Origin: a phage
Sequence record: PZ534515.1
Reading direction: 5' to 3' (one strand)
DNA: 64,000 nucleotides
The notes beneath the pieces were generated by a model. That model was not told the DNA's origin and ran no database searches. It worked only from the letters and a program-made list of their open reading frames with translations. The number at the start of each line of letters is the position of its first letter. Position 1 is the first letter of the stretch. Below, piece by piece: positions 12,271 to 58,353 of the stretch. A program made the position numbers and the translations under genes.

Positions 12271-12600
12271 TTAATCTGCCAACCTTAAATTGAAATTAAC
12301 ACCAAATTTTTCGCATACTTCCAACATAAACTCAAGAGAGACATTACCAGTGAGATTGATTATGTTGGATACACGAGCCTGAGAGATACCACAAATTTTA
12401 GCAACTTGCTCTTGAGAAAGACCTCTGGATTTAATCTCTCTCTTAAAACGATGTGCAACGAAGTCTCTCATTTCGTCTACATCCATTGGACAAATATAAC
12501 TCTCCATTTCAGCCTCTCTGTCAGCCTCCCAATCATCTTGTGGAGCATAAGGGTCAAAAACCTCATTCATCTTTCTTCTTCCGTTTGCGTGAAGTGTCAA
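12271..12600 (-). CDS. HTH (XRE-like) DNA-binding protein
   Basis: LSQEQVAKICGISQARVSNI helix-turn-helix signature. Confidence 0.5.
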   Translation of the reverse strand: MTLHANGRRKMNEVFDPYAPQDDWEADREAEMESYICPMDVDEMRDFVAHRFKREIKSRGLSQEQVAKICGISQARVSNIINLTGNVSLEFMLEVCEKFGVNFNLRLAD

Positions 12601-13160: not shown

Positions 13161-13261
13161 AATGACCTCAAAGTTATATTAAATTTTGTATTACATTGAG
13201 TATAAAAATAAGCTATAACACCTGACTTGTCAACAGATTTTATAGCTTATTTGGCAGATTT

Positions 13262-13536
13262 TTTATAAGGCTACTGCCATCCTTCCATACCATACCACAC
13301 CAAACCACACCATACCGAACCACACCCTACCAAACCCGACCAAACCCGACCGAGCATCACTTAAAAACCCTCTTAGAAGACTCTTAAGTGATGTAATCGA
13401 ATTTTAATGTAGCTCCGATTAACTACCCATACCTCACCTCACCCAACCATACCATGCCTTACCAGACCGCACCTTACCTCATTAAAAGACCCTCTTAAAA
13501 GACCTTTTAAAAAGGAGCCTCCGAAGAGGCTACCTA
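13262..13536 (-). ncRNA. structured non-coding element 1: A/C-rich tracts, 10-bp inverted repeat hairpin, conserved-loop hairpin, terminator
   Basis: ORF-free; modules catcacttaa...ttaagtgatg (13355..13393), aatcg-aattttaatgtagctc-cgatt (13396..13420), attaaaagaccctcttaaaagaccttttaaaaagg, terminator hairpin 13516..13531; all recur rearranged at 14671..14923. Confidence 0.45.
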
Positions 13537-13542
13537 GTCAAC

Positions 13543-13985: not shown

Positions 13986-14591
<606 letters not shown>

Positions 14592-14670
14592 TTAGTTGAT
14601 TGTTAAGTTGTTTGTAAAGAACCCTCAACAGAAGACTCTTTAGAAACTTGGTAGATTTTTAACGTGGCTA

Positions 14671-14923
14671 CTACCATCCACCCATACCATACTAAACCCG
14701 ACCTTACCTCACCTTACCTAACCTTACCCCAACCTACCCTACCAGACCAAACCTTATTAAAAGACCCTGTTTAAAGACCTTTTAAAAAGGTAAGTCTCAT
14801 TTTAATGTAGCTGAGACTAACTACCCGCACAGAACCTAACCGGACCCGACCTGACATAACCGGACCTAGCCTTGCATTGCCGTACATCACTTAAAAACCC
14901 TCTTAGAAGACCCTTAAGTGATG
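14671..14923 (-). ncRNA. structured non-coding element 2 (paralogue of element 1)
   Basis: Same modules as 13262..13536 in different order; hairpin agtctc-attttaatgtagct-gagact has compensatory stem changes relative to element 1. Confidence 0.45.
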
Positions 14924-14977
14924 CTGGTGAGTACCCGTTGGTTTATGCTGCTCAGTATACTCACCAAATTTTCTATG

Positions 14978-15166
14978 TCAACAACTTTCTAATAAAGTTT
15001 TATGAAGATTTTGCTTAACAACCCGCCTCACATGCCTGTGCTCTTTCTTAATAAAGAGTGACCTCTTCTTGATAGAGCGCCTATTCTTGTAAGTGTTGCT
15101 AGGGTACTTATCATGAACCGGACAACAACTACCCGTATTTGTAAACTTGATAATCTCTCTTTTCAC
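14978..15166 (-). CDS. small basic protein (uncertain)
   Basis: 62 aa Lys/Arg-rich ORF directly downstream of ligase. Confidence 0.3.
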   Translation of the reverse strand: MKREIIKFTNTGSCCPVHDKYPSNTYKNRRSIKKRSLFIKKEHRHVRRVVKQNLHKTLLESC

Positions 15167-16272
15167 TATTCATAATCCCTAATAACTAGCCCGACAGGGA
15201 ACTGTAAAGAACCCTTACGAGTCATCTTCTGGAACTGTACCGTTAAAGGTTTCCCGATAAACTCTTCAGGATGCTCAGCAAGATATTGTTTCTTCTCATG
15301 AGTAGTCTTCCATGAGACATCTACAAAGACGTTAGGAAGAGTCTCTACAACGAACTTGCCATGACCACGTTTATCGGTCTTTACACCAGTCACTTTAAAC
15401 TCTTCAGTGTGCATCTTCTTGTGCTTAATCAAGAAGTATGAACGGTGACAACACTCATAGAAGGAGTCTTCAGAGATTGAACGGTACATTGCACCTTCAA
15501 ACTTAGCTTCAACCCACTTATCATGAGCTTCATCAAACTCTTCCCAAGAATTTACACGACGAGACTTAACAGGGACAACTTTACAGCCATCTCTAAAGTC
15601 ATTCAATGGTGAAGTCTCAATAATATCTCTACGCTCAGGCCACGTCTTAGTACTGTCACAGATATCATACCAGTAAAATTTGAGCAAGTGTCTGTCAGGA
15701 TTGTCTTCATTTTTAATCATGGAGACGATATCTTCTAAGTCCCACCCATGAGCATAAATCTCTCCATCAAATTCATCAACATCTTTGTGGAGCCTTAACA
15801 TTGCCATAATGTCAGGTATTAGCTCAGTAGGTATTTTATAAACAGTATTCTCACGAGAGTATGCTGTAAATACACTACCAATGCTTAAGTGCCTTGAAAT
15901 CCTACAACGGACACCATCCAGTTTTGGTTGAGCATCAGCAGGGAACTTCAGATACTTTGCGTGACTAACCTTTGCAGCATCATGAGCAAGCTGTACACCT
16001 ACCTTCTCAGTATTCTGTGCAGACTCTTTTGTGTAAGCGTAACCCTTGCGGTCAACTTGCTTTTTATACTTAGCAGCAACTTCAAAGAGAGCTTGCTGTT
16101 CAGCGTTACGCTCATTCTTTTTACCGATGTTTTTAGGTTCTGCTGTATACTCTTCAAACATCATCTTGCCATTTTCTTTACCGTAGGTTGTAATAACTTT
16201 GTCACCTACAGCAACACATGACCAGACATTGAAAGAGCCATCTTTATTTTGTTTGTACAGAATTGTCATTTT
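15166..16272 (-). CDS. ATP-dependent DNA ligase
   Basis: Adenylation motif I KLDGVR; likely start is the ATG at 16272 (agagg RBS) rather than the track start 16305. Confidence 0.8.
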   Translation of the reverse strand, partial: KMTILYKQNKDGSFNVWSCVAVGDKVITTYGKENGKMMFEEYTAEPKNIGKKNERNAEQQALFEVAAKYKKQVDRKGYAYTKESAQNTEKVGVQLAHDAAKVSHAKYLKFPADAQPKLDGVRCRISRHLSIGSVFTAYSRENTVYKIPTELIPDIMAMLRLHKDVDEFDGEIYAHGWDLEDIVSMIKNEDNPDRHLLKFYWYDICDSTKTWPERRDIIETSPLNDFRDGCKVVPVKSRRVNSWEEFDEAHDKWVEAKFEGAMYRSISEDSFYECCHRSYFLIKHKKMHTEEFKVTGVKTDKRGHGKFVVETLPNVFVDVSWKTTHEKKQYLAEHPEEFIGKPLTVQFQKMTRKGSLQFPVGLVIRDYE

Positions 16273-17580: not shown

Positions 17581-20280
17581 TTAGTGCACCTCAAGCCAGC
17601 TTTTACCAACCTTACCAGTACCTGTAACAAGTGTTTCTTTCTTAAGACCTAAGTTTTTAGAAGCTTGTCCATAATACCAGTCAGTAACTGCTTTCACATC
17701 TGCCGTCATACTTTCTGGACATTCCCAACTCGTCTCATCGTGATATGCGCAGAGCAAACGAGCACCAATAGCTGGTTGACGACCATTCAACTTCATCAAA
17801 CCTTCGTCAATCATACGACGACAAGCAAGGTTAATTGCCTCATTTTGAATCTGCGCCTCTGAACCCATCAAAAGATAGTTCAACAGTTTGTGTGGAGATT
17901 TACACCACAACCAAGCTCCAGCAACCTTTACAAAACCCCCTTTAGAGATTGCAGCAGTCTTACCAAACACCTCTTCAAGTGCCTTTTTAGTCGCTTTGTA
18001 GTCAGCTTCCAAGTCATCTAGCAGTTTCTTAATTTTAGGCAAACGAATAAAGTAAGTCTGTTTAGTCAGTGCGCCTTCCTGAGTAGTTGCAGCTTTAATC
18101 GTCTTAGCAAACTTCTCATCACCTGCACCGAACAGCAGTGCATAGATACCATTCTTAGCTTTCTTACGACCCTTGCTAATCTCATGGAGAAGGTTCTCAT
18201 CCTGAGTAGCTCGGCAAGTCAAGATATCCTGCTCATCATTCAAGCTAAAGTAAATACTGTTCAGTGTGTGTGCATCAGTCCCTGAATAGACAACGTAAAG
18301 GTCATTCTCAGAGTCATAGCGAAGGTACTTATCAATCTCTGGGTTGAGGTACTCATCAAAGTGTTTGCAGTAATAGCGTCCATCTTCTTGACGAATAAAC
18401 TCAATCTCTTCTTTACCTTGCGTTACCGCTTTGGTGAAGTCTTTGTCACCCATAAAGTTACAAAGAAGAACTAGCTGGGCTGAGTTCATATCTACAGAGA
18501 CAACATTAGTGCCTTCTTCACAAATCCACACTGCCCTCATTGGTTCCCCATAGACAGCAGCACCAGACGGTACGTTTACAATACCATATTGTGTCATACG
18601 TCCAGTTGAAGTACCAAACACCATTGCACCAGCACTAAGGCGACCATCAGGACGAATCTGGTTCAACCAACCTTTTTCATCATCCTTTGAGTTCTCAATA
18701 GTTCTGCGTCTGTGCATCAAAGTATAGTACTTAGCAATCTTCTGTCCAAGCTCACCTTCAATCGTATCATAAGATGATTCAGTAAGTTTTGGTGAAGTAC
18801 GGATTAAGCAAGGTTCAAGCAAATCTGTGTACTTCTTCACAGACCAATTATGCTCAATGTACTGGACACCTTCATGTTCAACATAACTCAAACCACACCG
18901 TTCAACCATCTCCTGCCACTTAGGATGTTTTGTAATCATCTTTTTGTTGTCTTTGAAGCGACAAACCTTAACAGGACGACCATCTGAATCTTTCTTGTAG
19001 TTCCAGTCATCTGGAATCCAACCAACTGATTTCAAGTAGTCTTTAACAACTGCTACCTGAGTCATACGAGAAACTTCGAACTCAATTGGTGTATATGGTG
19101 CATCAATCAAACCTGTGTAGCGACTTGACTCAAGTTCAAAATGGTTAACAACATGACTGTTATAGTACTTCACAGTTTTAACTGTTTTTACTGGCTTCCA
19201 GTCTTTGCATTTCTTACCAATCTTTGCGTTCAACTCATTGCAAATTGCACGAGCATCCTTCATTGCTACAAAACCTTCCTTGTACTCTTCACCAGTTACA
19301 GAGTTGGTTGGTGTATAGCAATTTCTCTTTTCAATGTTAAAAATCTTTGTAGTTGGTTTACCAAATGGCTTGATTTCATATGTCTGCATCTCACCGTTAC
19401 GTACCTGCTGACGATACTTTGTCTTAGGGTACTTGGTAATTCTCTTCAGTCCATCTGCATGACCGAATGCTTCAACATACTCATTCCAAGCTTTTGCAAA
19501 CTCTTCTCCAGTGACTTTACCTTTGGTCTTAATAGTTGGAGGAAGATGTGGTTCAACTTCTGAAGCAAGCTCATTAGTCAATTTGTCAAGTTCCTTTACA
19601 TGGAACTCCATAAGCTCTTTATCAGCTTTCCAACCATTGATAGCTTGTTGACTCATCCAGAAAGATGTTTCTTTAGCTCGCATGTAGGTTTCATAAGTAT
19701 CTACGCCACACTTCTTTAACTTCAGATATTCATTATCCAATGCACGTTTAGCTTTGGCGTTAATACGGATATCCTCTACAACACGAGTGAAGATTTCTGC
19801 ATTCCACACACCCCAATGTTCAATCTCTGGTTTACGGACACCAACACGAGCACCCCATGCAGCCAAACCATGAGCGCCTTTATAGCCCTTTGGAGTTGGT
19901 CTATCCATCCACTGAACACGAGACTGAATAAGAGAATCCTGAAAGAAATTACTCCACGGCTTACACTTTGGATTATCAAAGTTCCACAAATCAGGTGCAA
20001 TGTGATTGAAAACCCACCAGTCATACCCCAGACCATTATGGATGCAAAGTCGTTTTGCCTTTAACGCAAACTCAACACCTTCACGCAAGCCACCCTTAAT
20101 GTACTTGGTATACTTGTGACCGAGGATAGGCTCATCTGTAAAGACCCATACAGGTGGCTCTTCATCGTCAGATTTATAGTCTGCGAAAGCCATTACGTGC
20201 ACTTTAGTGAACTCAAGGAGTAAACCATCAGTTTCTGTATCACCAACTAAATGTAAGTTTTTAAAATCTACGTTTTCCAT
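17581..20280 (-). CDS. family A DNA polymerase with 3'-5' exonuclease domain
   Basis: Exo I motif DTETDGL, motif B KNGIYALLFGAG, motif C YHDE; start set at the ATG preceded by agagggag RBS (track start 20310). Confidence 0.9.
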   Translation of the reverse strand: MENVDFKNLHLVGDTETDGLLLEFTKVHVMAFADYKSDDEEPPVWVFTDEPILGHKYTKYIKGGLREGVEFALKAKRLCIHNGLGYDWWVFNHIAPDLWNFDNPKCKPWSNFFQDSLIQSRVQWMDRPTPKGYKGAHGLAAWGARVGVRKPEIEHWGVWNAEIFTRVVEDIRINAKAKRALDNEYLKLKKCGVDTYETYMRAKETSFWMSQQAINGWKADKELMEFHVKELDKLTNELASEVEPHLPPTIKTKGKVTGEEFAKAWNEYVEAFGHADGLKRITKYPKTKYRQQVRNGEMQTYEIKPFGKPTTKIFNIEKRNCYTPTNSVTGEEYKEGFVAMKDARAICNELNAKIGKKCKDWKPVKTVKTVKYYNSHVVNHFELESSRYTGLIDAPYTPIEFEVSRMTQVAVVKDYLKSVGWIPDDWNYKKDSDGRPVKVCRFKDNKKMITKHPKWQEMVERCGLSYVEHEGVQYIEHNWSVKKYTDLLEPCLIRTSPKLTESSYDTIEGELGQKIAKYYTLMHRRRTIENSKDDEKGWLNQIRPDGRLSAGAMVFGTSTGRMTQYGIVNVPSGAAVYGEPMRAVWICEEGTNVVSVDMNSAQLVLLCNFMGDKDFTKAVTQGKEEIEFIRQEDGRYYCKHFDEYLNPEIDKYLRYDSENDLYVVYSGTDAHTLNSIYFSLNDEQDILTCRATQDENLLHEISKGRKKAKNGIYALLFGAGDEKFAKTIKAATTQEGALTKQTYFIRLPKIKKLLDDLEADYKATKKALEEVFGKTAAISKGGFVKVAGAWLWCKSPHKLLNYLLMGSEAQIQNEAINLACRRMIDEGLMKLNGRQPAIGARLLCAYHDETSWECPESMTADVKAVTDWYYGQASKNLGLKKETLVTGTGKVGKSWLEVH

Positions 20281-20340
20281 TTTTACTCCCTCTAAAATCA
20301 TTAACCTCATACATTACTGCAAAAAATTATAAAAAGCAAG

Positions 20341-20493
20341 TTGACAATGTGCTTGACAAGGTGTTAATCTTTGCGAAGTGGGTTTTTACTTAAAAGGTTA
20401 CTTAACAGTTTAACTATACAGATACTTTAAAACTCTTAAAAGATTATTTAATAGCTTTTAAAAAGCTTTAAAGTATAACGTATAGAATACGTT
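20341..20493. promoter_or_regulatory. divergent control region: tandem TTGACA boxes and two perfect palindromes
   Basis: ttgacaatgtgcttgaca at 20341; palindromes agcttttaaaaagct (20453..20467) and aacgtatagaatacgtt (20477..20493). Confidence 0.4.
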
Positions 20494-20537
20494 AAGATAA
20501 AAGATTAAAACTTAATAGTTACTTAAAAGAGGCTTAC

Positions 20538-20960
20538 ATGCAGAAAATGTTTGTTCACCCAGACATAGCTGACTTTGTTAGAGCTTTGCAGAAGTTGGAA
20601 GAACTTGACATTGCTGCTCAACGGGAATATGCTCACCATCACAGGAGAATGGTTGATATACAACATGAGATAGAGTTGTCTGAAAACTATGAAGATGACT
20701 TAAAATGCTCTGTATTTGAGCATATGAAAGATGTTGCTACAGCGAGGCGTAAAGCTAAAGACACAGTTGCTTTACTAGATTCTCTTAAAAAGAGGTTGCA
20801 AAGTGGTACAGACCTGTGTAATCTAGCGTCACTGATTAACGATGTTGAAACTTCTTGGGATAGACATTACTATCCACGTTCTGAAAAGACACTTGACTTT
20901 TCTTCATCAGAAAACTTAAAATGTTCTAGAAAGAAACTTAACCAACTGAGAGAGAAATAA
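20538..20960 (+). CDS. hypothetical protein
   Basis: 140 aa ORF, first gene of the + operon. Confidence 0.5.
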   Translation: MQKMFVHPDIADFVRALQKLEELDIAAQREYAHHHRRMVDIQHEIELSENYEDDLKCSVFEHMKDVATARRKAKDTVALLDSLKKRLQSGTDLCNLASLINDVETSWDRHYYPRSEKTLDFSSSENLKCSRKKLNQLREK

Positions 20961-35622: not shown

Positions 35623-35632
35623 AACTTGACAA

Positions 35633-38641: not shown

Positions 38642-39523
38642 ATGAAAACTATTATTGAAGCCGTTGTCACCGCACAAGAGAAATTCTTCCACACAGAAAA
38701 ATTTAATATCATCCAATTCCCATCTGGAGAAATTGGTGGAAACTTCTCTGAAGACTTTGTTAAGTTTACTGAGCGTAATGCTGGTAAGATTGACAATGTT
38801 ATATTGACTGTACAGGGATATGATAAAGATACACTGTTTGCATTAGCTTTGGCTAAGGATGCCGTTGACAGTCTTGTTCCATACAAATCAGCGATGAAAA
38901 CCGTTGTTTTCGGGTTCTTACCGAATGCTCGATATGACCGCCATATATTCAAAGGTGATTCAGCAGCACTGAAAGCCTTTGCCAACCTCGTTAATGCAAT
39001 GGGTTTTGATGCAGTATGTGCTCTTGACCCTCACAGTAATGTTGCAGAAAACTTATTTAAGTGTTTTCAGAGCATGAAGCAAAAAGATGTAGCAGCACAC
39101 TTTGCAAGTGACCCACGCATTGATTTCTTGGTAGCCCCAGATGCAGGTGCAGCTAAGAAGACTGAAGAGACTGCTAAAGAGGTGGATAAACCATATATCA
39201 CAATGTCTAAAGTACGCAACCTTAAGACTGGTGAAATTACTGGTATGCGAATCCTTGATGCTGTTGATTTGACCGATAAAACTGTCATGATTCTTGATGA
39301 TATTTGTGATGGAGGCCGAACCTTCATAGAAGCAGCTAAACATCTTCGTGAAGCAGGTGCAAAACGTGTGGAACTCTATGTAACTCATGGTATTTTCTCT
39401 AAAGGTGTTGAAAACTTACTTGACAATGGTATTGACCATATCTACACTACAAACTCTTTAGGGGAAGCTAAAGACCGTGGATTAACACATTATGCCCAAG
39501 TTACTGTAGTAACCATTGATTGA
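38642..39523 (+). CDS. prs: ribose-phosphate pyrophosphokinase-like protein (candidate ADP-ribose pyrophosphokinase, NARP1 Adps)
   Basis: PRPP-binding loop VMILDDICDGGRT; ATG at 38642 after agagagagag (track uses TTG at 38621); directly upstream of the NAMPT-like gene. Confidence 0.7.
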   Translation: MKTIIEAVVTAQEKFFHTEKFNIIQFPSGEIGGNFSEDFVKFTERNAGKIDNVILTVQGYDKDTLFALALAKDAVDSLVPYKSAMKTVVFGFLPNARYDRHIFKGDSAALKAFANLVNAMGFDAVCALDPHSNVAENLFKCFQSMKQKDVAAHFASDPRIDFLVAPDAGAAKKTEETAKEVDKPYITMSKVRNLKTGEITGMRILDAVDLTDKTVMILDDICDGGRTFIEAAKHLREAGAKRVELYVTHGIFSKGVENLLDNGIDHIYTTNSLGEAKDRGLTHYAQVTVVTID

Positions 39524-44647: not shown

Positions 44648-44677
44648 TTGACAAGGGGCTTCAAAGCCCCTTAGAAT
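44648..44677 (+). promoter_or_regulatory. promoter with hairpin occupying the spacer
   Basis: TTGACA, spacer aggggcttcaaagcccc (perfect hairpin), then TAGAAT. Confidence 0.5.
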
Positions 44678-50679: not shown

Positions 50680-50767
50680 AAAGTACTTTACAAGGGGCTT
50701 AAAAGTTGATATCTTAAGCCCCAGATAAAGAGCTTTACTAACTTACCTTAAACTAGGAGATTCTAAA

Positions 50768-51148
50768 ATGGCTTATCGTGCACCGAAATTCATCAATAAA
50801 GACAACTTCCGCAACGCACTGGAGAAGTCACTTGATGAAAAATTTAACGGTAAATTGATTATTGTTCACGCATTCAATTTTAAGTATGATATTAATGGGA
50901 ATAAAATCAACCATTACACGGCAACCATGATAGATGGTACACTATCAAGTGAAAAAGCCGTACTGAATGCACTTGCTGGACGCGGTAAAAACCTGATAAA
51001 ATGTGATAAGCGACGTTATCAGGGTGGCGCATATGGTTATGATGATGCTGTTTACCATCTTGAAAACATGGGCTATTCAGTGGAAAAAGCTGGAGTGTCT
51101 CAAATAATCGGCAGTGACGGCTATGTGACAATTTTCAAAATTAACTAA
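50768..51148 (+). CDS. small early-type protein 2
   Basis: 126 aa ORF behind type A cassette. Confidence 0.5.
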   Translation: MAYRAPKFINKDNFRNALEKSLDEKFNGKLIIVHAFNFKYDINGNKINHYTATMIDGTLSSEKAVLNALAGRGKNLIKCDKRRYQGGAYGYDDAVYHLENMGYSVEKAGVSQIIGSDGYVTIFKIN

Positions 51149-51236
51149 TAAAGTACTTTACAGGGGGCTTATAGTTCGATAAAGTAAGCCCCAGATAAAG
51201 AGCTTTACCACTAAATCCTAAATTGGAGATTCAAAA

Positions 51237-51527
51237 ATGGCTATTATTAAAAACGTTGTAATTCCTGCAAAAACTCGTGATGACGCTCGCATCATGGCGA
51301 AAAAGTTAGGCGGGAAAGTGGTTGACAACGGAAAACAAACTGCTGTAAGGTGGAACGTGAAGGCGGATAAACAAATGAATTTAAAAAATTCACCAATAAA
51401 CTTTTTTACATGTGTAAACACTATCGGGAAAACGAATGTATACACTAAAAAGGCATATATCAGACGCATCGCCATGACGTCACCTATTCGCACAATGAGA
51501 AGTCATGCAAAGCTGAAAATTAAGTAA
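51237..51527 (+). CDS. small early-type protein 3
   Basis: 96 aa ORF behind type A cassette. Confidence 0.5.
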   Translation: MAIIKNVVIPAKTRDDARIMAKKLGGKVVDNGKQTAVRWNVKADKQMNLKNSPINFFTCVNTIGKTNVYTKKAYIRRIAMTSPIRTMRSHAKLKIK

Positions 51528-51617
51528 TAGAGTACTTTACAGGGGGCTTAAAAGCTGATATCTTAAGCCCCAGATAAAGAGCTTTACCACTCAATCCTTA
51601 AACTAGGAGATTCAAAA

Positions 51618-52130
51618 ATGAAAACTGTAGACGCTACCTTTGAAGTTGTAAAAGAAAAATTTTCCATCATTTACGAAGCTGTCAATTGCTACGAAGCAAG
51701 CCATAATCTTGATAATTGGAAGTTTACAGATGACCATCAAGGCGGTGTGACTATTAAAAACCCCAACTGTCAGCGTAATGGATTTAAATATGCAATTCCT
51801 TTACATTACAGCCTTAAACAGCTTTCAATTGACTATGCAAAACAAGGCCGGGAAAATCCATCGAAAGAGGCTTACATCAGCTTACAGAAAGAACTAGAAA
51901 GAGATTTAGAGGCTTCAGAATATAACATCGCCGCGAAAGTTGTAGATGCAAACGGTAGCACGGTTTTAGAGAGTTTTTATATTGGTTATGCTTTCGATTG
52001 GTGCTACAGTGACGGCGATGATTTAGATGACAGACTAAAAGAGGAAGTGAACAACGCAGACGCAGAATCTGAAGTATTAGAACGCTTGGAAGCATTAAAA
52101 GATTCAGTGATGAATATCTTTAAGAACTAA
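51618..52130 (+). CDS. small early-type protein 4
   Basis: 170 aa ORF behind type A cassette. Confidence 0.5.
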   Translation: MKTVDATFEVVKEKFSIIYEAVNCYEASHNLDNWKFTDDHQGGVTIKNPNCQRNGFKYAIPLHYSLKQLSIDYAKQGRENPSKEAYISLQKELERDLEASEYNIAAKVVDANGSTVLESFYIGYAFDWCYSDGDDLDDRLKEEVNNADAESEVLERLEALKDSVMNIFKN

Positions 52131-52222
52131 ATAGATTTCTTTACACGGGGCTAACAAGCTGGTAGGATAGCCCCAGATAAAGAGATTTATCAAATAAAGC
52201 CCTTAAACTAGGAGATTCAAAA

Positions 52223-52519
52223 ATGAAATTATCAAATCAAGTGCGTGAAAATCTAAGCAAATTACTCAATAAAATTGATTTTATCGAGACATCAAGAAAT
52301 AGTCATGATGTTATGGAATGGTTACACGGCAAAATAAAAGGCCGTCGCGTAGTAATTTGCTTATGGAATAGTTGCAGGGAGTATAAAAAGCCTGTATTGC
52401 AAATTAATGTTTATGATGATACTTTTAAAAGTCCTGTTAAATCTGAAAGTGATTTATTAGAAGCTTATGAGATAACTGTAAATGGTAAAGTATCACGCAG
52501 AGAGGTAACACCATGCTAA
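52223..52519 (+). CDS. small early-type protein 5
   Basis: 98 aa ORF behind type A cassette. Confidence 0.5.
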   Translation: MKLSNQVRENLSKLLNKIDFIETSRNSHDVMEWLHGKIKGRRVVICLWNSCREYKKPVLQINVYDDTFKSPVKSESDLLEAYEITVNGKVSRREVTPC

Positions 52520-52845
52520 TGATGGGCATCACTGCAATCATCGCCATTATAGCACTTTATAAGGCTTACAGCGCCTACAATCTGGCAAGTAAGGCAATCA
52601 CGCAACAGGTCAATAATAGCCTTGTAATGAGCTTTCTGGAGCGTTTAAGTGATGAGCAAATAAAGCGGCTAGAAATGAGCTTCAGATTCAAAGCGAAAAC
52701 CTATCAGATAAGTGATATCTTCAAAGATGATTTTCAGTTAGTCGATGATTATAATTCACTGATAAATGCTTTAAATATCAGTGACTTAAAAGACTACTAC
52801 GCTGTAATTGTTCAAGAATTGAGCAAACGAAAAAATTTCTCTTGA
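52513..52845 (+). CDS. small membrane protein 6
   Basis: 110 aa, N-terminal TM-like segment GITAIIAIIALY; translationally coupled. Confidence 0.45.
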   Translation: MLMMGITAIIAIIALYKAYSAYNLASKAITQQVNNSLVMSFLERLSDEQIKRLEMSFRFKAKTYQISDIFKDDFQLVDDYNSLINALNISDLKDYYAVIVQELSKRKNFS

Positions 52846-52932
52846 TTTTGGTTTTTAAAACAAGTAAATTACTAATCAACGGGAGGGATGACCTCCCCAC
52901 TAAGTAAAGTCCTTAAACTAGGAGATTAGAAA

Positions 52933-53205
52933 ATGTATACTACTAACAACGGTCGTACTCTAAATGTAACTTTGCGCCACTATGTGAACGGTGTAATGCA
53001 CTTCGAGGATTTACAAGCCGAACAACATATCTTAGATTGGCAACTTGCAGGACTCCAAAAAACTGCTACAGGATACGGGAAAAAGATTCCAACCAGTTGG
53101 AAAGTATACTACGAAGGCCGTTTGCGCAGAATTTATCAAGATGTGCATAGCAATAGCGCAACAAGTTACATCATGGTAAAAGGCAAAAAGCTGCATTTAG
53201 TATAA
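52933..53205 (+). CDS. small early-type protein 7
   Basis: 90 aa ORF behind type B cassette. Confidence 0.5.
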   Translation: MYTTNNGRTLNVTLRHYVNGVMHFEDLQAEQHILDWQLAGLQKTATGYGKKIPTSWKVYYEGRLRRIYQDVHSNSATSYIMVKGKKLHLV

Positions 53206-53291
53206 AGTACTTTACAAGGGGCTTATAGTTCGATAAAGTAAGCCCCAGATAAAGAGCTTTACCACTAAATCCTAAATTGGAGAACTTAAAA

Positions 53292-53696
53292 ATGGCTATT
53301 AATAATCGCGAGTTATCAATCTTAAAAGCACGTTTGACCGTTAACCGGATTAATGTTATTACGTCATCAGCACCGGACGAAACATTGCACAACATTATTG
53401 GGAAGATTCAAAGCGTTATCTTAGACGTTGAAAACGTAAAAAACTCATTGGCTGACGTTGCAGCAGGTATCACGCTAGACGGTGCACAATATGAAATGAC
53501 CGACATGTTAGGCAAATCTAAGGTAATGAATAAAGAGCTTGATTTGAAAATGTTTCGATTTGCTGTTAAAGTGTGGCTATCTGTCGAGTATGACGCTAAT
53601 TTTGCAATCGCTGACTTTTTCGCAACATGGTTGCAACGTAACTTAACAAATCACGATTTTCGTAATATCTGTGATGCAATTTACGCAGAACTATAA
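53292..53696 (+). CDS. small early-type protein 8
   Basis: Start at the ATG that follows the conserved leader (track start 53277 lies within the leader). Confidence 0.5.
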   Translation: MAINNRELSILKARLTVNRINVITSSAPDETLHNIIGKIQSVILDVENVKNSLADVAAGITLDGAQYEMTDMLGKSKVMNKELDLKMFRFAVKVWLSVEYDANFAIADFFATWLQRNLTNHDFRNICDAIYAEL

Positions 53697-53797
53697 AAAT
53701 TTTTGTTGACACTGGTTTTCAGATAGATTAAATTACACATCAACGGGGCTGGAATGACCTTCCCCACTAAATAAAGTCCTAAACTGGAGATTCAAAA

Positions 53798-54001
53798 ATG
53801 GCTATTATTAACGGTTTAACCATTGAAACTACACACATCAAAGATATTAAAGTTGGTGATGTAGTCCTTTCCCACGGCGTAGAGAAAACTGTTACTGCAA
53901 AGGATATCAAAGAGGATTCTTTCATGGGTAGGACTCTCTTCGGTGATTCTTATTGCTTAGGTTATCTTGCAGTTTTAAAAGTTGTCAAAAATAACCGATA
54001 A
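53798..54001 (+). CDS. small early-type protein 9
   Basis: 67 aa ORF behind type B cassette with TTGACA-17-TAAATT promoter at 53705. Confidence 0.5.
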   Translation: MAIINGLTIETTHIKDIKVGDVVLSHGVEKTVTAKDIKEDSFMGRTLFGDSYCLGYLAVLKVVKNNR

Positions 54002-54093
54002 AGTACTTTACAAGGGGCTTAAAAGTTGATATCTTAAGCCCCAGATAAAGAGCTTTACCACTAAATCAAGTCCTTAAACTAGGAGATTCAAAA

Positions 54094-54636
54094 ATGAAAT
54101 GCTTTCACGGTACTACTCAAGAAAATTTTATCAACCTGATTAATAACGGTGATAAGCCATCAGGTGCATGGAATTGTTCGGATATGGATGGGAATTTTTA
54201 CGTTTATCCAGAAAATAAAATCTATGGCGACGATGAGGAAGAGATAATCTCTGAAGGTATCCAGCAAGCTCTGGGCAATGCCGCTATCACCGCAGCTTTC
54301 CAGATGAAAACCCAAAATATTGTTATCTTAGAACTTGATATTCCAGAAGATGAGTTAAACGATGATTATTCTTGTGATAATATGTCTGGCGTGGCAAGTT
54401 TTACAGAATATTTCGATTTAAACTGGATTAAAAAGGTTTACACCACTGAATTTAATGCTATGTTTTCACCATTTTGTCTGCCTTCACTGGATAACCCGAA
54501 TTTAAGCTATATTGACGAGTCTCTGGAACTTCTCGCTAAAAGCGTTCAACAGTCCGACAGTATTCAAGTTTTTTGTGACATCATGGACACACTGACGGGA
54601 AACATCATAGAAAGAGATTTAAAGAGCTTTTTCTGA
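54094..54636 (+). CDS. small early-type protein 10 (acidic)
   Basis: 180 aa ORF behind type A cassette. Confidence 0.5.
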   Translation: MKCFHGTTQENFINLINNGDKPSGAWNCSDMDGNFYVYPENKIYGDDEEEIISEGIQQALGNAAITAAFQMKTQNIVILELDIPEDELNDDYSCDNMSGVASFTEYFDLNWIKKVYTTEFNAMFSPFCLPSLDNPNLSYIDESLELLAKSVQQSDSIQVFCDIMDTLTGNIIERDLKSFF

Positions 54637-54702
54637 AAACCTATACAATCACCTTATAAACACTATTCAGCCCCTGTAAGGGGCTTTTAAGAGGCTTAAA
54701 TC

Positions 54703-54936
54703 ATGCTTACAACTGTTTATCTCATCCTTTCTATTTGTAACGGTCATTCATGTGATTTTAAAGGGCTTGAGGAGTTTACAGGAAGTAAAGAAAATGCCGT
54801 TCAGGTCTGTCAGATAGCAAGACAAGACTACCCCGCCAGTGATGACATTCAGTGTTATTTTAAGACAGAAGACAGCGACGGCGTTTATTTTGACAGCGTT
54901 GATGGTCAATATGAAATTATCATTGAAAAAGACTAG
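54703..54936 (+). CDS. small early-type protein 11
   Basis: 77 aa ORF; preceded by hairpin agcccctgtaaggggctttt rather than a cassette. Confidence 0.45.
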   Translation: MLTTVYLILSICNGHSCDFKGLEEFTGSKENAVQVCQIARQDYPASDDIQCYFKTEDSDGVYFDSVDGQYEIIIEKD

Positions 54937-55025
54937 ACAAGCCTGATAAAAGTCTGTAAATTGTCAATCAACGGGAGGGATGACCTCCCAACTAAACAAA
55001 GTCCTTAAACTAGGAGATTCAAAAA

Positions 55026-55366
55026 TGGCTTATGTAACCGTAATTACCAATAAAGAAGATTCATCTTGGTCAACTCAAGTAAGTGACAAGATGTCACCTA
55101 TGCAGTGCCTAAAATACTTTGAGCAATGGAACAAAGGTGAGGAAACAAGCCCCTTTCAAGTAATGCAGGTTATTCATACAGACAACGAAGGGAATAAAAC
55201 TGTTTTGAATAGTGAGTACTATGCAACCAGATTCGAAACGAGAAGTAAAGCAATGAGGCTCTTACGTGAATCCGGTTACTCTCATATTGCCGCGCTAATC
55301 TGGGATGACCTCCTAAAAAGTCAGCGTATCAGCTATGTAAAACCTGAAAAAATATTTATCAGCTAA
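55026..55366 (+). CDS. small early-type protein 12
   Basis: Start at the leader ATG 55026 (track start 54980 is an in-frame read-through of the leader). Confidence 0.5.
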
Positions 55367-55585
55367 TCAATAACTTACAAAAAACTTTTAAAAAAGTGTT
55401 GACAATGCCCCTTGACATTGGTAACTTTGTTCGAGGGGGTTTATCTAAAAGGATTCACTTAAAAGATTCTTTATAGATAAACTTAAAAAATTGCTTGCAA
55501 TCAGCTATCAAAACAAGTAAATTACTAATCAACGGGAGGGATAACCTCCCCACTAAGTAAAGTCCTTAAACTAGGAGATTCAAAA

Positions 55586-56116
55586 ATGAACAAATTTCAA
55601 GCTATCAACTACATTCGCTCAATCCATGTAATGTCAAAGCCTGTTAAAGACACCTATGAATTTCGTTGCAATGGTGTACACTTTGCAACCATCACTAAAT
55701 CAGAAAACGGGACTTATTACATTCATCGTCGTAATGTTGCAACCGTTGTAGTCTCTCACTTTATGCAAGCCGTTGCGGAACTCCTCCCGATGTTTTTAGG
55801 GCTTTACTTGGATGAGTGTAAGAATATCCGTAACCACGTTAAAAGCCTTTTAAACGGTTATAAAATGGCTTATGAACGTTCTATTCATAATTTGAACAAG
55901 TTCTATAAAGCCCCTGAAAACACCGTATCAATGGCATACGCTGTAAAGGGTGAGGCGGTGAGTCTCTTCGAAGTGGAAGAAATCGAGCTTTATGACCATC
56001 GCCCCAATGGTTACGCTAAAACTCTCGGTGAAGGTTTAACGTTTAACATCAAGAACTTAGAAAAAACTTTAAGAGATATTGAAAAAGATATTGACGAGAC
56101 AATCAAAAATCTGTAA
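55586..56116 (+). CDS. small early-type protein 13
   Basis: 176 aa ORF behind type B cassette. Confidence 0.5.
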   Translation: MNKFQAINYIRSIHVMSKPVKDTYEFRCNGVHFATITKSENGTYYIHRRNVATVVVSHFMQAVAELLPMFLGLYLDECKNIRNHVKSLLNGYKMAYERSIHNLNKFYKAPENTVSMAYAVKGEAVSLFEVEEIELYDHRPNGYAKTLGEGLTFNIKNLEKTLRDIEKDIDETIKNL

Positions 56117-56181
56117 ATTATCAATCAACGGGAGGGATAACCTCCCCACTAAGTAAAGTCCTTAAACTAGGAGTTATCAAG

Positions 56182-56445
56182 ATGGAAAACGTAGAATTAA
56201 CCACACTTTTACAAATTGCAACCGATAAAGAAAACGTAGCATTAATTCACCGCATCGAAAGTGATTTGTTCAATGGTGAAATCATCAAAGAGTCTTACGA
56301 AGTTGTCGGATTCAAAGATGGTAAAACGTTTGGATTCTTTGACCTCGACAAAGGCAACGCTGTTACAAATTACGATGTTTTATCTTGTGAGATTCTTACA
56401 AAATACAACGAAAAAAGGCTTGCAACATACACCAACATGCAGTAA
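56182..56445 (+). CDS. small early-type protein 14
   Basis: 87 aa ORF behind type B cassette. Confidence 0.5.
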   Translation: MENVELTTLLQIATDKENVALIHRIESDLFNGEIIKESYEVVGFKDGKTFGFFDLDKGNAVTNYDVLSCEILTKYNEKRLATYTNMQ

Positions 56446-56511
56446 ATTACTAATCAACGGGAGGTAATGACCTCCCCACTAAACAAAGTCCTTAAACTAG
56501 GAGATTCAAAA

Positions 56512-56798: not shown

Positions 56799-56824
56799 AG
56801 CCCCTTTCCAATAGGGGCTTTTTT
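56799..56824 (+). terminator. strong intrinsic terminator ending the small-gene array
   Basis: agcccct-ttccaat-aggggct followed by tttttt; preceded by a second hairpin ggggctaaatagcccc. Confidence 0.7.
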
Positions 56825-56825
56825 A

Positions 56826-58353
56826 CGTCTTATGAAATGCCTATACAATCCTTTCCCTTTCCTTTCCAGAATCTTACTAGACCTTAAAAAGCAATAACTC
56901 TATAGCTTACTCTATAGCCTTTTATCAAATCAACTTAAATATAAGCCCATAACCCGAAAGGGAAGGGCAACCATTTAAACGCTCTATAAAGCCCTATAAC
57001 AGCCTTATCAACCCAACTTAAGGGATTGCATTACCTCACCCTTAAAAGCCCTTTATAAAGCTTTCTAGAGCCTTAAAAGAATCTTATAAGGTTGTAAGCT
57101 TTATCATCTCGTTAGTATCTTATGAACTACTAGAAAGGGCTTGTTAGTGTTTTAAAAGTATGTTATAGGGGCTATAAAGTTGCTTAAAAGTAGCTTAAAA
57201 GTTACGTAAATGCTAGCCCCCTTAACATTTTCTTAACAATTTCTTAACAAACCCTACATAGTTATGCTTTTAAGGCACTTGTTAGCAACTTGTTAGCCCC
57301 TTGTTAAATCTCTGTTAAAACCATGTAAAAGCCTTGTAAGAGTCTTTGACATAGCCTTTAAAGCCCCTGTAAAGCCCTATAAAGAGCTTTCTACATAGTT
57401 GGGGTGTAATTACTAGGAAGAGACTTAAAAGAGCTTACAAGGAGCTATAGAGAGCTTTTAAGAGGGCTATTTAGAGAATCACTAAGAAAGAGAGGGAACG
57501 ATAAGAAAAGAGATAGTGACCATGTTAATAGCTTGTTAAAAAGATTAAACACTTGTTAGGAACTTGTTAATTATCTTAACAAAATAACTCTTTAAAATTA
57601 ACTTGTTAGCTCTTGTTAGTCATCTGTTAAGCATCTGTAAAGACTATTCAGCACTTGTTAGAAAACTGTTAAGCCCTTGTTAGTTCTGTTAAGAAACTGT
57701 TAAGACCTCTGAAGAGATGTTAAGAAGATGTAGCAACTGTTAAGAGATTGTTAATGATATTTTAAAATTCTGCAAAGGGGATGTTACAGGGATGTTAAGG
57801 GCTACCAAGCAGATATACATCTTCTACAGATATTTTTGAGTTCCTTCAAAGACCCTAAAAAATGACTTGATAGTCCTATTTTATAAAAATTTTAAAATTC
57901 TGAATAATTACCTAGACAGTCTTTTAAAAATACAGGCATAAACAGGCTTATAAGATACCTTGTTAGTACCGTGTTAGACCTTGTGAGATAAGGTCTGTAA
58001 AGATATTCCTGTTAAGTTTGTTAAAACAGTCTATATAGAGGCTTAGTAATACCTAGTGAACACCTATAGAGGGTAACATAGCTGACATAGAGATTAAGAG
58101 GTGTATAGGGGCTTCTAAGAGTGTGTAGATGTATGGTTAAGGTGATTGTATAGGTTGTTAAGAAGGCTTGTTAGAAGAGTGTTTAGAAGGGCTATACAGA
58201 GGGGCTATTAAGACCACTAGATAGTTACTAAGATACTATATAGTACTATATAACTATATATAGAGAGTAAGCTTAAGGAGGTTGTTAAGAAGGATAGATA
58301 TTTTATTCACATATGATGGTGACCCAGAGGTTGGGACAACCGATAAAATTTTA
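56826..58353. repeat. ORF-free repeat-dense region (phased cttgttag/ctgttaag units, ctataaag units)
   Basis: No ORF of 60 aa or more on either strand over about 1.5 kb; 57600..57760 carries about 12 ttgttag/tgttaag units at roughly 10-11 bp spacing. Confidence 0.6.

Follow-up and report, generated by a model that had tools for sequence, protein, structure and literature searches.

The gap at positions 20281–20537 of a 64,000-nt stretch of phage DNA (sequence record PZ534515.1; the whole stretch is called the window below) separates two genes transcribed away from each other: to its left, on the minus strand, a family A DNA polymerase gene, and to its right, on the plus strand, the first gene of a rightward block of ~36 kb (20538 to ~56.7 kb). 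The source phage is a Felixounavirus, a Felix O1-like myovirus, and the gap is that between Felix O1 genes 96 and 97, at a point of divergent transcription. The segment 19800–21000 matches 258 phage records, mostly at 95–99% identity, and the region is kept in 259 phage records and across three genera (Felixounavirus, Suspvirus, and Mooglevirus). A preliminary description of this DNA had reported two tandem TTGACA boxes here, a second such pair at 55399, and two palindromes; all of these are present where it placed them, and conservation across the three genera bears out its view of the region as a genuine control region at the point of divergence, and a strongly conserved one. Its left edge, drawn at 20311, has to be moved, since the polymerase gene most likely begins at 20280.

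This start (ATG 20280, not 20310) is almost certainly correct: a Shine-Dalgarno sequence (GAGGGAG) lies upstream of it, the coding sequence (CDS) is annotated as 2700 nt in relatives, and a 1-nt indel within 20281–20310 in other genera rules out coding there. The gap is accordingly 20281–20537. The longest polymerase open reading frame (ORF) opens at 20310, so that taking the gene mechanically from the ORF makes it 10 codons too long. No intrinsic terminators were found in the gap.

Divergent promoters in the 96/97 gap have been assumed to initiate early transcription of Felix O1, although the same authors detected nothing there that looked like a host promoter and described temporal control in this phage as not understood (Whichard et al., 2010; PMC3185647). 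A published list of 42 predicted promoters for the related phage UAB_Phi87 has no entry between 43.6 and 55.7 kb; in that genome the gap lies at 52.28–52.63 kb. We favor, with rather more confidence than doubt, the interpretation that the gap is a compound control region for the host σ70 RNA polymerase, made up of a rightward promoter (PR), a second -35-like hexamer within it (box 2), a leftward promoter, and a long leader. The elements on which this interpretation draws are as follows.

17581–20280, minus strand: family A DNA polymerase gene (Felix O1 gene 96 homolog; Pfam DNA_pol_A)
20311–20339, minus strand: candidate leftward promoter PL1, with -35 TTGCTT (20339–20334), a 17-nt spacer, -10 TAATGT (20316–20311), and a predicted start near 20304
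20321–20340, plus strand: A-tracts AAAAAATTATAAAAAGCAAG, UP-element-like, just 5′ of box 1
20341–20358, plus strand: twin box TTGACAATGTGCTTGACA
20341–20346, plus strand: box 1, TTGACA, the predicted -35 of PR; invariant
20347–20352, plus strand: inter-box bases ATGTGC, of which 20349–20351 are variable
20353–20358, plus strand: box 2, TTGACA, within the PR spacer, 6 nt before the -10; invariant in 14 modules
20362–20370, plus strand: TGt plus TAATCT, the putative extended -10 of PR (-10 at 20365–20370), with a predicted start near 20376–20378
20376–20537, plus strand: conserved AT-rich leader with ~13 CTTAAnAG-type words phased at 11 bp
20398–20500, unstranded: imperfect dyad of ~100 bp, with a core of 27-nt arms (20422–20476, center 20449, 78% arm complementarity)
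20453–20467, unstranded: palindrome 1, AGCTTTTAAAAAGCT, perfect 7+1+7
20477–20493, unstranded: palindrome 2, AACGTATAGAATACGTT, 7+3+7, extended at 20476–20494 to TAACGTAT-AGA-ATACGTTA, 8+3+8
20527–20960, plus strand: ribosome-binding site (RBS) AAGAGG (20527–20532) and, after it, the gene that opens the rightward operon (140 aa, without a Pfam family; homolog of Felix O1 gene 97)
55399–55417, plus strand: twin box TTGACAATGCCCCTTGACA
55390–55427, plus strand: second module, with A6 at 55390–55395, box 1 at 55399–55404, box 2 at 55412–55417, TG at 55419–55420, and -10 TAACTT at 55422–55427
14777–14791, unstranded: palindrome 1 paralog ACCTTTTAAAAAGGT; a further copy lies at 13502–13516
12271–12570, minus strand: candidate regulator, a protein of the Cro/C1 helix-turn-helix (HTH) type (Pfam HTH_3, E 5e-11); annotations in relatives give 99 aa

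The pattern TTGACA-N5-8-TTGACA was found twice, against 0.20 expected; two of 100 shuffles reach this count. The boxes of the 20341 copy had been described as 13 bp apart: their start-to-start distance is 12 bp, and that in the 55399 copy is 13 bp. The part of the genome absent from the window was scanned in the corresponding stretch of a close relative, JN01, and holds one more twin box. This third copy lies between Felix O1 genes 40 and 41, the other gap with divergent transcription, and reads rightward into the morphogenesis block. The recurrence reported earlier stands, at three copies per genome (20341, 55399, and the 40/41 gap outside the window). The copies share short motifs only, with no BLAST-level similarity to one another.

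Fourteen module sequences, orthologs of the three copies from Felixounavirus, Suspvirus, and Mooglevirus, were compared. In all 14, box 1 and box 2 both read TTGACA, a TG comes after box 2, an A5–6 tract ends 3–5 nt upstream of box 1, and a TAnnnT hexamer follows box 1 after 17 or 18 nt (18 nt for TAATCT, and 17 nt each for TAACTT and TAGGCT, the hexamers of the three copies). Within the A-tract region upstream of box 1, AAAAAGCAAG is invariant. The -10 hexamers differ between genera (TAATCT/TAGTCT, TAACTT/TAGATT, and TAGGCT/TAGCCT), with T1, A2, and T6 constant and positions 3–5 varying, and the 4–5 inter-box bases differ as well, both between genera (TGTG, TTCA, ATCA, AGCA, ACTA) and even among genomes that are 98–99% identical (TGTG, TGCA, TGTA, TGCG). 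Fixed T1, A2, and T6 amid variation at positions 3–5 and between the boxes is the footprint expected of a working -10 element. A TGn motif stands at 20362–20364, at 55419–55421, and in most orthologs. The core promoter is 83–93% identical to that of the other genera, compared with 39–64% at third codon positions, and more distant relatives (Pectobacterium phage Arno162 and the Erwinia Kolesnikviruses) have a single TTGACA-N17-TAnnnT at the same place. On a σ70 scoring matrix that is our own rough approximation of published frequencies, PR scores 12.3, the 55399 copy 13.6, and the third copy 13.1, each the top plus-strand candidate of its gap; by the same rough matrix only 37 of ~128,000 window positions score 12 or more.

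PR would thus consist of an UP-like A-tract, box 1 as a consensus -35, an 18-nt spacer, a TG, and the weak -10 TAATCT. It would initiate transcription at ~20377 for the whole 36-kb operon that opens with gene 97, and would belong to a class of three promoters that also head the morphogenesis operon and, with the 55399 copy, the early-gene block. For the 55399 module, which is kept in Suspvirus and Mooglevirus, a start is predicted near 55433–55435; a second promoter (TTGCAA at 55495, N17, TAAATT) follows it. That the gap is a promoter region of host type, in which PR has box 1 for its -35, we regard as fairly probable. Two ways of reading the twin boxes find no support. They do not behave as an alternative -35 pair, as a TAnnnT with an upstream TG sits 17–18 nt after box 1 alone in all copies, nor as a divergent device, as all three copies point rightward and the 55399 copy lies within a one-directional gene array.

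Several points weigh against PR, or against the compound region as a whole. The scoring matrix, as noted, is an approximation. The -10 of PR matches TATAAT at just three of six positions; a simple consensus scanner does not call PR, and two published promoter surveys missed it, in both cases probably because the -10 of the twin-box promoters is weak. The TG of the third module, and that of one ortholog (Mordin), directly adjoins the -10 with no base between them. The three genera amount to few independent lineages, and we found no transcriptome or start-site study of a Felixounavirus in the literature. The promoter reading leaves the role of box 2 unexplained, and on the leftward side a better -10 than that of PL1, also conserved, is available (TATAGT at 20418–20413, with TTTTAA 17 nt upstream); transcription from it would face PR.

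PL1 itself has an invariant -35 (TTGCTT) and a -10 that retains T1, A2, and T6 (TAATGT, TAGGGT, TAGTGT), with a spacer that differs between genera at up to nine of 17 positions. It scores low (6.1) on the rough matrix, and would give a leader of ~24 nt to the polymerase start. The favored interpretation would have it as a weak promoter, probably back to back with PR and serving the polymerase gene. Both PL1 and the TATAGT candidate are possible polymerase promoters, and we cannot choose between them.

Some further matches to parts of the module were set aside. Two other occurrences of TTGAC[AT]-N4-9-TTGAC[AT], at 38790 (plus strand) and 48070 (minus strand), have no partner -10 or A-tract and lie in or antisense to a CDS; they are not modules. 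A T4 MotA box was likewise rejected: TGCTT occurs in the window's own inter-box variant only, and stands 8 nt from the -10 rather than 12 ± 1. A scan of IMG/VR for TTGACAA-N4-5-CTTGACA returned at least 120 unrelated contigs with one match each, which can be put down to chance because the pattern specifies only 14 bases. The sequence TATAAAAAGCAAGTTGAC, which forms the 5′ half of PR (20328–20345), has an exact 18-nt copy at 16051–16068 on the minus strand, in the DNA ligase CDS (BLAST E 2e-4); no -10 follows this copy.

The second box is located 4–6 nt upstream of the -10 across copies, and its neighboring bases vary freely; the pattern of conserved hexamers and variable inter-box bases holds, yet the box inside the spacer is invariant too. 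As a -35 element it fails, with no -10-like TAnnnT 16–18 nt downstream of it in any copy. Its extended form, TTGACAAGGTG, is an ordinary -35 with a properly spaced -10 at 35626 (plus strand) and 17574 (minus strand), so that elsewhere in the genome the motif is a standard -35. Box 2 is under strong selection but cannot serve as a normal -35. The simplest proposal is that it is a candidate binding site for a factor modulating the three-copy promoter class. We are aware of no function for a consensus -35 hexamer placed within a spacer, and in an informal comparison with the consensus sites of CRP, FNR, IHF, PhoB, σ32, σ24, and σ28, none fit the boxes.

The ~160 bp downstream of PR stand out most within the region. 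Positions 20383–20532 are the lowest-GC 150 bp of the window, at 0.207; this is 4.8 standard deviations (SD) below the window mean (0.387, SD 0.038), and the next-lowest segment is at 0.26. The leaders of the other two twin-box copies are less extreme (GC 0.30–0.32). The leader is 83–84% identical to those of Suspvirus and Mooglevirus, far above the 39–64% at third codon positions of the flanking genes, indicating purifying selection over its whole length. It contains ~13 words of the types CTTAAAAG, CTTAACAG, CTATACAG, and CTTTAAAG, and its AG and CT steps have a period of 11.0 bp, reached by none of 500 shuffles. Classical A-tract bending finds no support: AAA periodicity peaks at 7.75 bp, not 10–11 bp. 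The words are not confined to the leader. With up to one mismatch, CTTAAAAG occurs 142 times on the plus strand and 101 times on the minus strand (~48 expected per strand), most densely in the leader; CTTWAMAG occurs 87 times in the window on both strands, compared with 12.7 ± 4.2 expected (a ~7-fold excess, which extends to CDS, with 48 of the copies), and is in ~3.4-fold excess in the late-gene part of JN01. The ~100-bp dyad has folding z-scores of -4.3 (plus strand) and -5.6 (minus strand) in the window and of -1.3 to -7.4 in orthologs. We infer that the leader is cis-regulatory, either as a leader/operator array or as an unwinding element. From PR, a conserved leader of 160 nt would be transcribed that could fold into the ~100-bp dyad, with the palindromes as parts of the word array. 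Three ways of reading the leader (regulatory leader or operator array, unwinding element like that of T4 oriF, structured RNA) are live, and are not mutually exclusive.

Both palindromes had been called perfect: their arms are, but each has an unpaired center (7+1+7 and 7+3+7). They are not significant by themselves. In dinucleotide-preserving shuffles of the gap, at least one palindrome with arms of at least 7 bp and a loop of at most 4 nt appears in 29%, and at least two in 10%, and both palindromes are sub-features of the larger dyad and word array. A genome-wide count had been suggested as a check; it gave no recurrence of either full palindrome, but three copies of the palindrome 1 core, the 11-mer CTTTTAAAAAG, against 0.22 expected. 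The remaining copies of the core, at 14779 and 13504, are each in a long gap of the leftward replication cluster and are kept in Moogle and SUSP phages; on the transcribed minus strand they form the T-run following a hairpin, as in a terminator, and may be terminator parts rather than operators. In orthologs from Suspvirus and Sf13-like phages palindrome 1 has one pair lost or wobbled, and shows no covariation. Palindrome 2, which is unique in the genome, is fully paired in seven of seven representative sequences, although both partners of two pairs have changed (A-T became T-A, and C-G became T-A). Two of 500 shuffles do as well, and slid controls fall far below. In all seven sequences the right arm is likewise in perfect pairing with CTTAAC at 20401–20406, and the same columns covary, which means that three segments change together. 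Behind this could be a pair of RNA helices that exclude each other, or a concerted change in three copies of a single DNA word. Both palindromes are dyad-symmetric and within the 14–19 bp size range of operators, and neither overlaps PR. The leader of the third twin box has a perfect palindrome of its own (AGATATC-TTTCTG-GATATCT; JN01 L010 4635–4654, in the gene 40/41 gap), invariant in four orthologs.

The preliminary description took the palindromes as candidate operators coordinating the replication and nucleotide-metabolism operons, and named the product of 12271–12600 as a possible HTH regulator. That protein is indeed of the Cro/C1 HTH type, but no site can be linked to it. In its broader form, with the palindromes and/or box 2 as operators through which a phage DNA-binding regulator (for example, this protein) times the polymerase and nucleotide-metabolism operons, the idea has several attractions. 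Homologs of the HTH protein are found in Felixounavirus, Suspvirus, and Mooglevirus only, the same genera that have the twin box and leader; palindrome 2, at 17–19 bp, is of the size of a dimer operator, keeps its symmetry by two compensatory changes, and fills the spacer of a weak leftward promoter candidate (TTATCT-17-TATACT); the palindrome 1 core recurs well above expectation, always in gaps of the replication cluster, and is kept in other genera; and a binding partner would be needed to explain why box 2 is invariant. Other points speak against the idea. The shared occurrence of protein and region goes back to one phylogenetic event and counts for little, and Arno162 and the Kolesnikviruses have related word arrays in the gap without a detectable HTH homolog. 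The recognition helix, SQ(A/S)RVSNI, is nearly invariant while the palindrome 2 half-sites differ between genera, and no covariation between the two was seen. Palindromes of this kind arise in 10–29% of shuffles, palindrome 2 is present once in the genome, and palindrome 1 is not strictly kept and has paralogs resembling terminator T-runs. Operator function is possible, but we consider it unlikely as an account of the region: the earlier observations are confirmed, and the interpretation as coordinating operators is at best partly supported, by the covariation of palindrome 2 and the recurrence of the palindrome 1 core. An alternative that deserves weight is a replication origin of the T4 oriF/oriG type, in which PR would fire into the easily melted leader, an R-loop would prime the leading strand, and the words and dyad would act as an unwinding element and/or an iteron-like platform. 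In T4, the active origins are found where transcription diverges and base composition shifts (PMC3016281), and the leader, with its extreme composition, lies directly downstream of a strong promoter-like site, at a transcription divergence and the cumulative GC-skew minimum, and adjoins the polymerase and replication gene cluster; the phased repeats and the significant dyad would also suit this role. GC skew tracks gene orientation everywhere in this DNA, however, and so is not origin-specific; the other two twin-box leaders are far less AT-rich; and T4 unwinding elements have no sequence requirement, whereas this leader is 83% conserved base by base, which suggests sequence-specific reading. 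An origin would be compatible with PR as a promoter, and appears to us a serious rival, though a doubtful one.

A further alternative is an element acting as RNA, with the leader transcript forming a long imperfect hairpin or two exclusive helices and providing a processing or stability site (e.g., for RNase III) or a translational switch for gene 97. The 103-nt core of the dyad folds on the plus strand better than any of 300 shuffles (z = -4.3), the whole leader less so (z = -2.3); the right arm (20487–20496) pairs completely with both 20477–20483 and 20401–20406, with the covariation described above; and plus-strand G-U pairs would be A-C mismatches on the minus strand. Yet the minus strand folds equally well or better in five of seven genomes, as expected for a DNA dyad, six of 39 consensus pairs are broken in some genera, the long hairpin is lost in Moogle and Sf14, and the covariation rests on two events. 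A search of the gap against Rfam, on both strands and at a permissive threshold, gave no match (best 19 bits, with a gathering threshold of 109). We think an RNA element distinctly unlikely. More speculatively, box 2 and the 11-bp-phased CTTWAMAG arrays might together be the docking platform of a factor of the Ounavirinae (a DNA-binding protein, or a remodeled σ70 region 4 near the -10) that switches the three rightward units in sequence, with 20376–20537 serving also as an R-loop origin and the same words organizing DNA around the terminal repeat; we would give this combined scheme little credence. At the far end of the scale, all of these could be chance features of an AT-rich spacer that merely separates two operons. 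The palindromes taken alone, and the lack of a canonical promoter at the boxes by the simple scanner, would agree with this, but 83–93% identity across genera against 39–64% at third codon positions contradicts it, as do three paralogous modules, each conserved, and a periodicity and dyad beyond all shuffles, and it is scarcely credible.

The flanking and more distant parts of the window have some features of their own. The gene 97 protein is 62–75% identical to its Suspvirus and Mooglevirus counterparts, and has homologs also in Erwinia and Pectobacterium phages. The gaps of the leftward replication cluster at 13161–13542 and 14589–14977 (minus-strand reading) contain tracts of GGTNN pentamers, ~15–20 units each, flanked by a hairpin (CATCACTTAAG...CTTAAGTGATG) and by modules of a hairpin plus CCTTTTTAAAAGG. 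The modules are kept in Moogle and SUSP phages and may represent non-coding RNA, G-rich structures, or protein binding sites. A strong promoter-like sequence at 14981 (TTGACA-16-TATACT) reads into one of the two gaps. At 44648 and 35626 there are promoter-like sequences with a terminator hairpin as spacer (TTGACA-AGGGGCTTCAAAGCCCCT-TAGAAT, and TTGACAAGGTGATGT...ACATCACCTTTTTT with TAGGCT), and having transcription re-initiate directly at a terminator seems to be frequent in this phage.

To the right of the rightward block, 56800–58350 is 1.5 kb without ORFs, with ~28 TGTTA[AG] units (CTTGTTAG, CTGTTAAG) ~11 bp apart and CTTAAAAG words as well. It is not a tRNA cluster, as no tRNA gene is present in 56.8–58.4 kb. 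Relatives' records that open at ~57216 repeat 57216–57806 at their far end, placing a direct terminal repeat of ~590 bp here, in agreement with the 608-bp repeat reported for UAB_Phi87; the genome ends are placed from such records (starting at window ~57216), the UAB_Phi87 record not being opened at its physical end. The small early-gene array at 50680–56505 contains repeated cassettes of two types: in one, TTTACA-N17-TAnnnT lies within GGGGCTTA...TAAGCCCC, with the spacer and -10 in the hairpin; in the other, TTGACA or TTGCAA-N17-TAAATT is followed by a GGGAGGG...CCTCCC hairpin and a fixed RBS.

Felix O1-like phages are classic typing phages, now in use in therapy and biocontrol, and their transcription programme is unmapped. 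Promoter predictions are given here where published analyses (the Felix O1 paper and the UAB_Phi87 survey) found none, and they are testable: one promoter class, with start sites, in three copies heading the main rightward units, and a candidate origin or regulatory leader. The conserved extra -35 hexamer in the spacer is unexplained by existing promoter models; if functional, it would amount to a novel element of promoters, or to a novel way for phages to control the σ70 polymerase.

Compared with known systems, the region is of a known kind, a strong host-type phage early promoter, with two new features: the second -35 hexamer in the spacer, and the long, phased, dyad-symmetric AT-rich leader. 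Two of three elements are enough for a σ70 promoter, and UP, -35, TGn, and -10 occur together in T4 early promoters (Hinton, 2010; PMC2988021). The twin-box promoters resemble these, T7 PA1, and lambda PL in being suited to unmodified host σ70, a consensus -35 and a TAnnnT being joined by an A/T tract and a TG (PMC2988021). As in those phages, several copies head early transcription units; unlike them, the copies here have a weak -10 (three of six matches in PR) and an AT-rich leader of >100 nt after each. We know of no second consensus TTGACA in the spacer of T4 early promoters, T7 PA1, or lambda PL that would provide a precedent for box 2.

With T4 origins of the oriF type, the region shares a promoter followed by the most AT-rich DNA, at a divergence and compositional shift, beside replication genes. 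In the T4 origins, however, the promoters are MotA-dependent middle promoters and the unwinding elements have no sequence requirement, whereas here the promoter would be of host type and the element after it is conserved base by base, phased, and dyad-symmetric. The Cro/CI operators of temperate phages are ~17-bp pseudo-palindromes, in several copies that overlap promoters. Palindrome 2 is likewise a 17–19 bp dyad, and a Cro/C1-type HTH protein is encoded nearby; but it is present in a single copy that does not overlap the strong promoter, and the phage is virulent. In the lambda Q-loaded PR′ complex, σ region 4 engages a -35-like TTGACT. This and the TTGN6TTGC motif of lambda CII and P22 C1 (quoted in PMC4837284) are leads only, as cases of a -35-like hexamer at a non-canonical distance from the -10 or of a repeated TTG motif around the -35; the period here is 12–13 bp rather than the 10 of CII/C1, both repeats are full consensus -35 hexamers, and no CII-, C1-, or Q-like protein was identified in the phage.

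Finally, the PeSL cassettes of T4-like phages (PMC2839356, PMC4122927) are repeated promoter modules in arrays of small early genes, as is the 55399 copy, and both cassette types at 50680–56505 resemble them. While the 20341 module has no such stem or terminator-like site, the promoter-in-hairpin arrangement holds for the cassettes at 50687, 51536, 52140, and 54007, and in part for the 55399 module, in which a CCCCTTGA...TCGAGGGG stem with TTTAT after it encloses box 2 and the -10.

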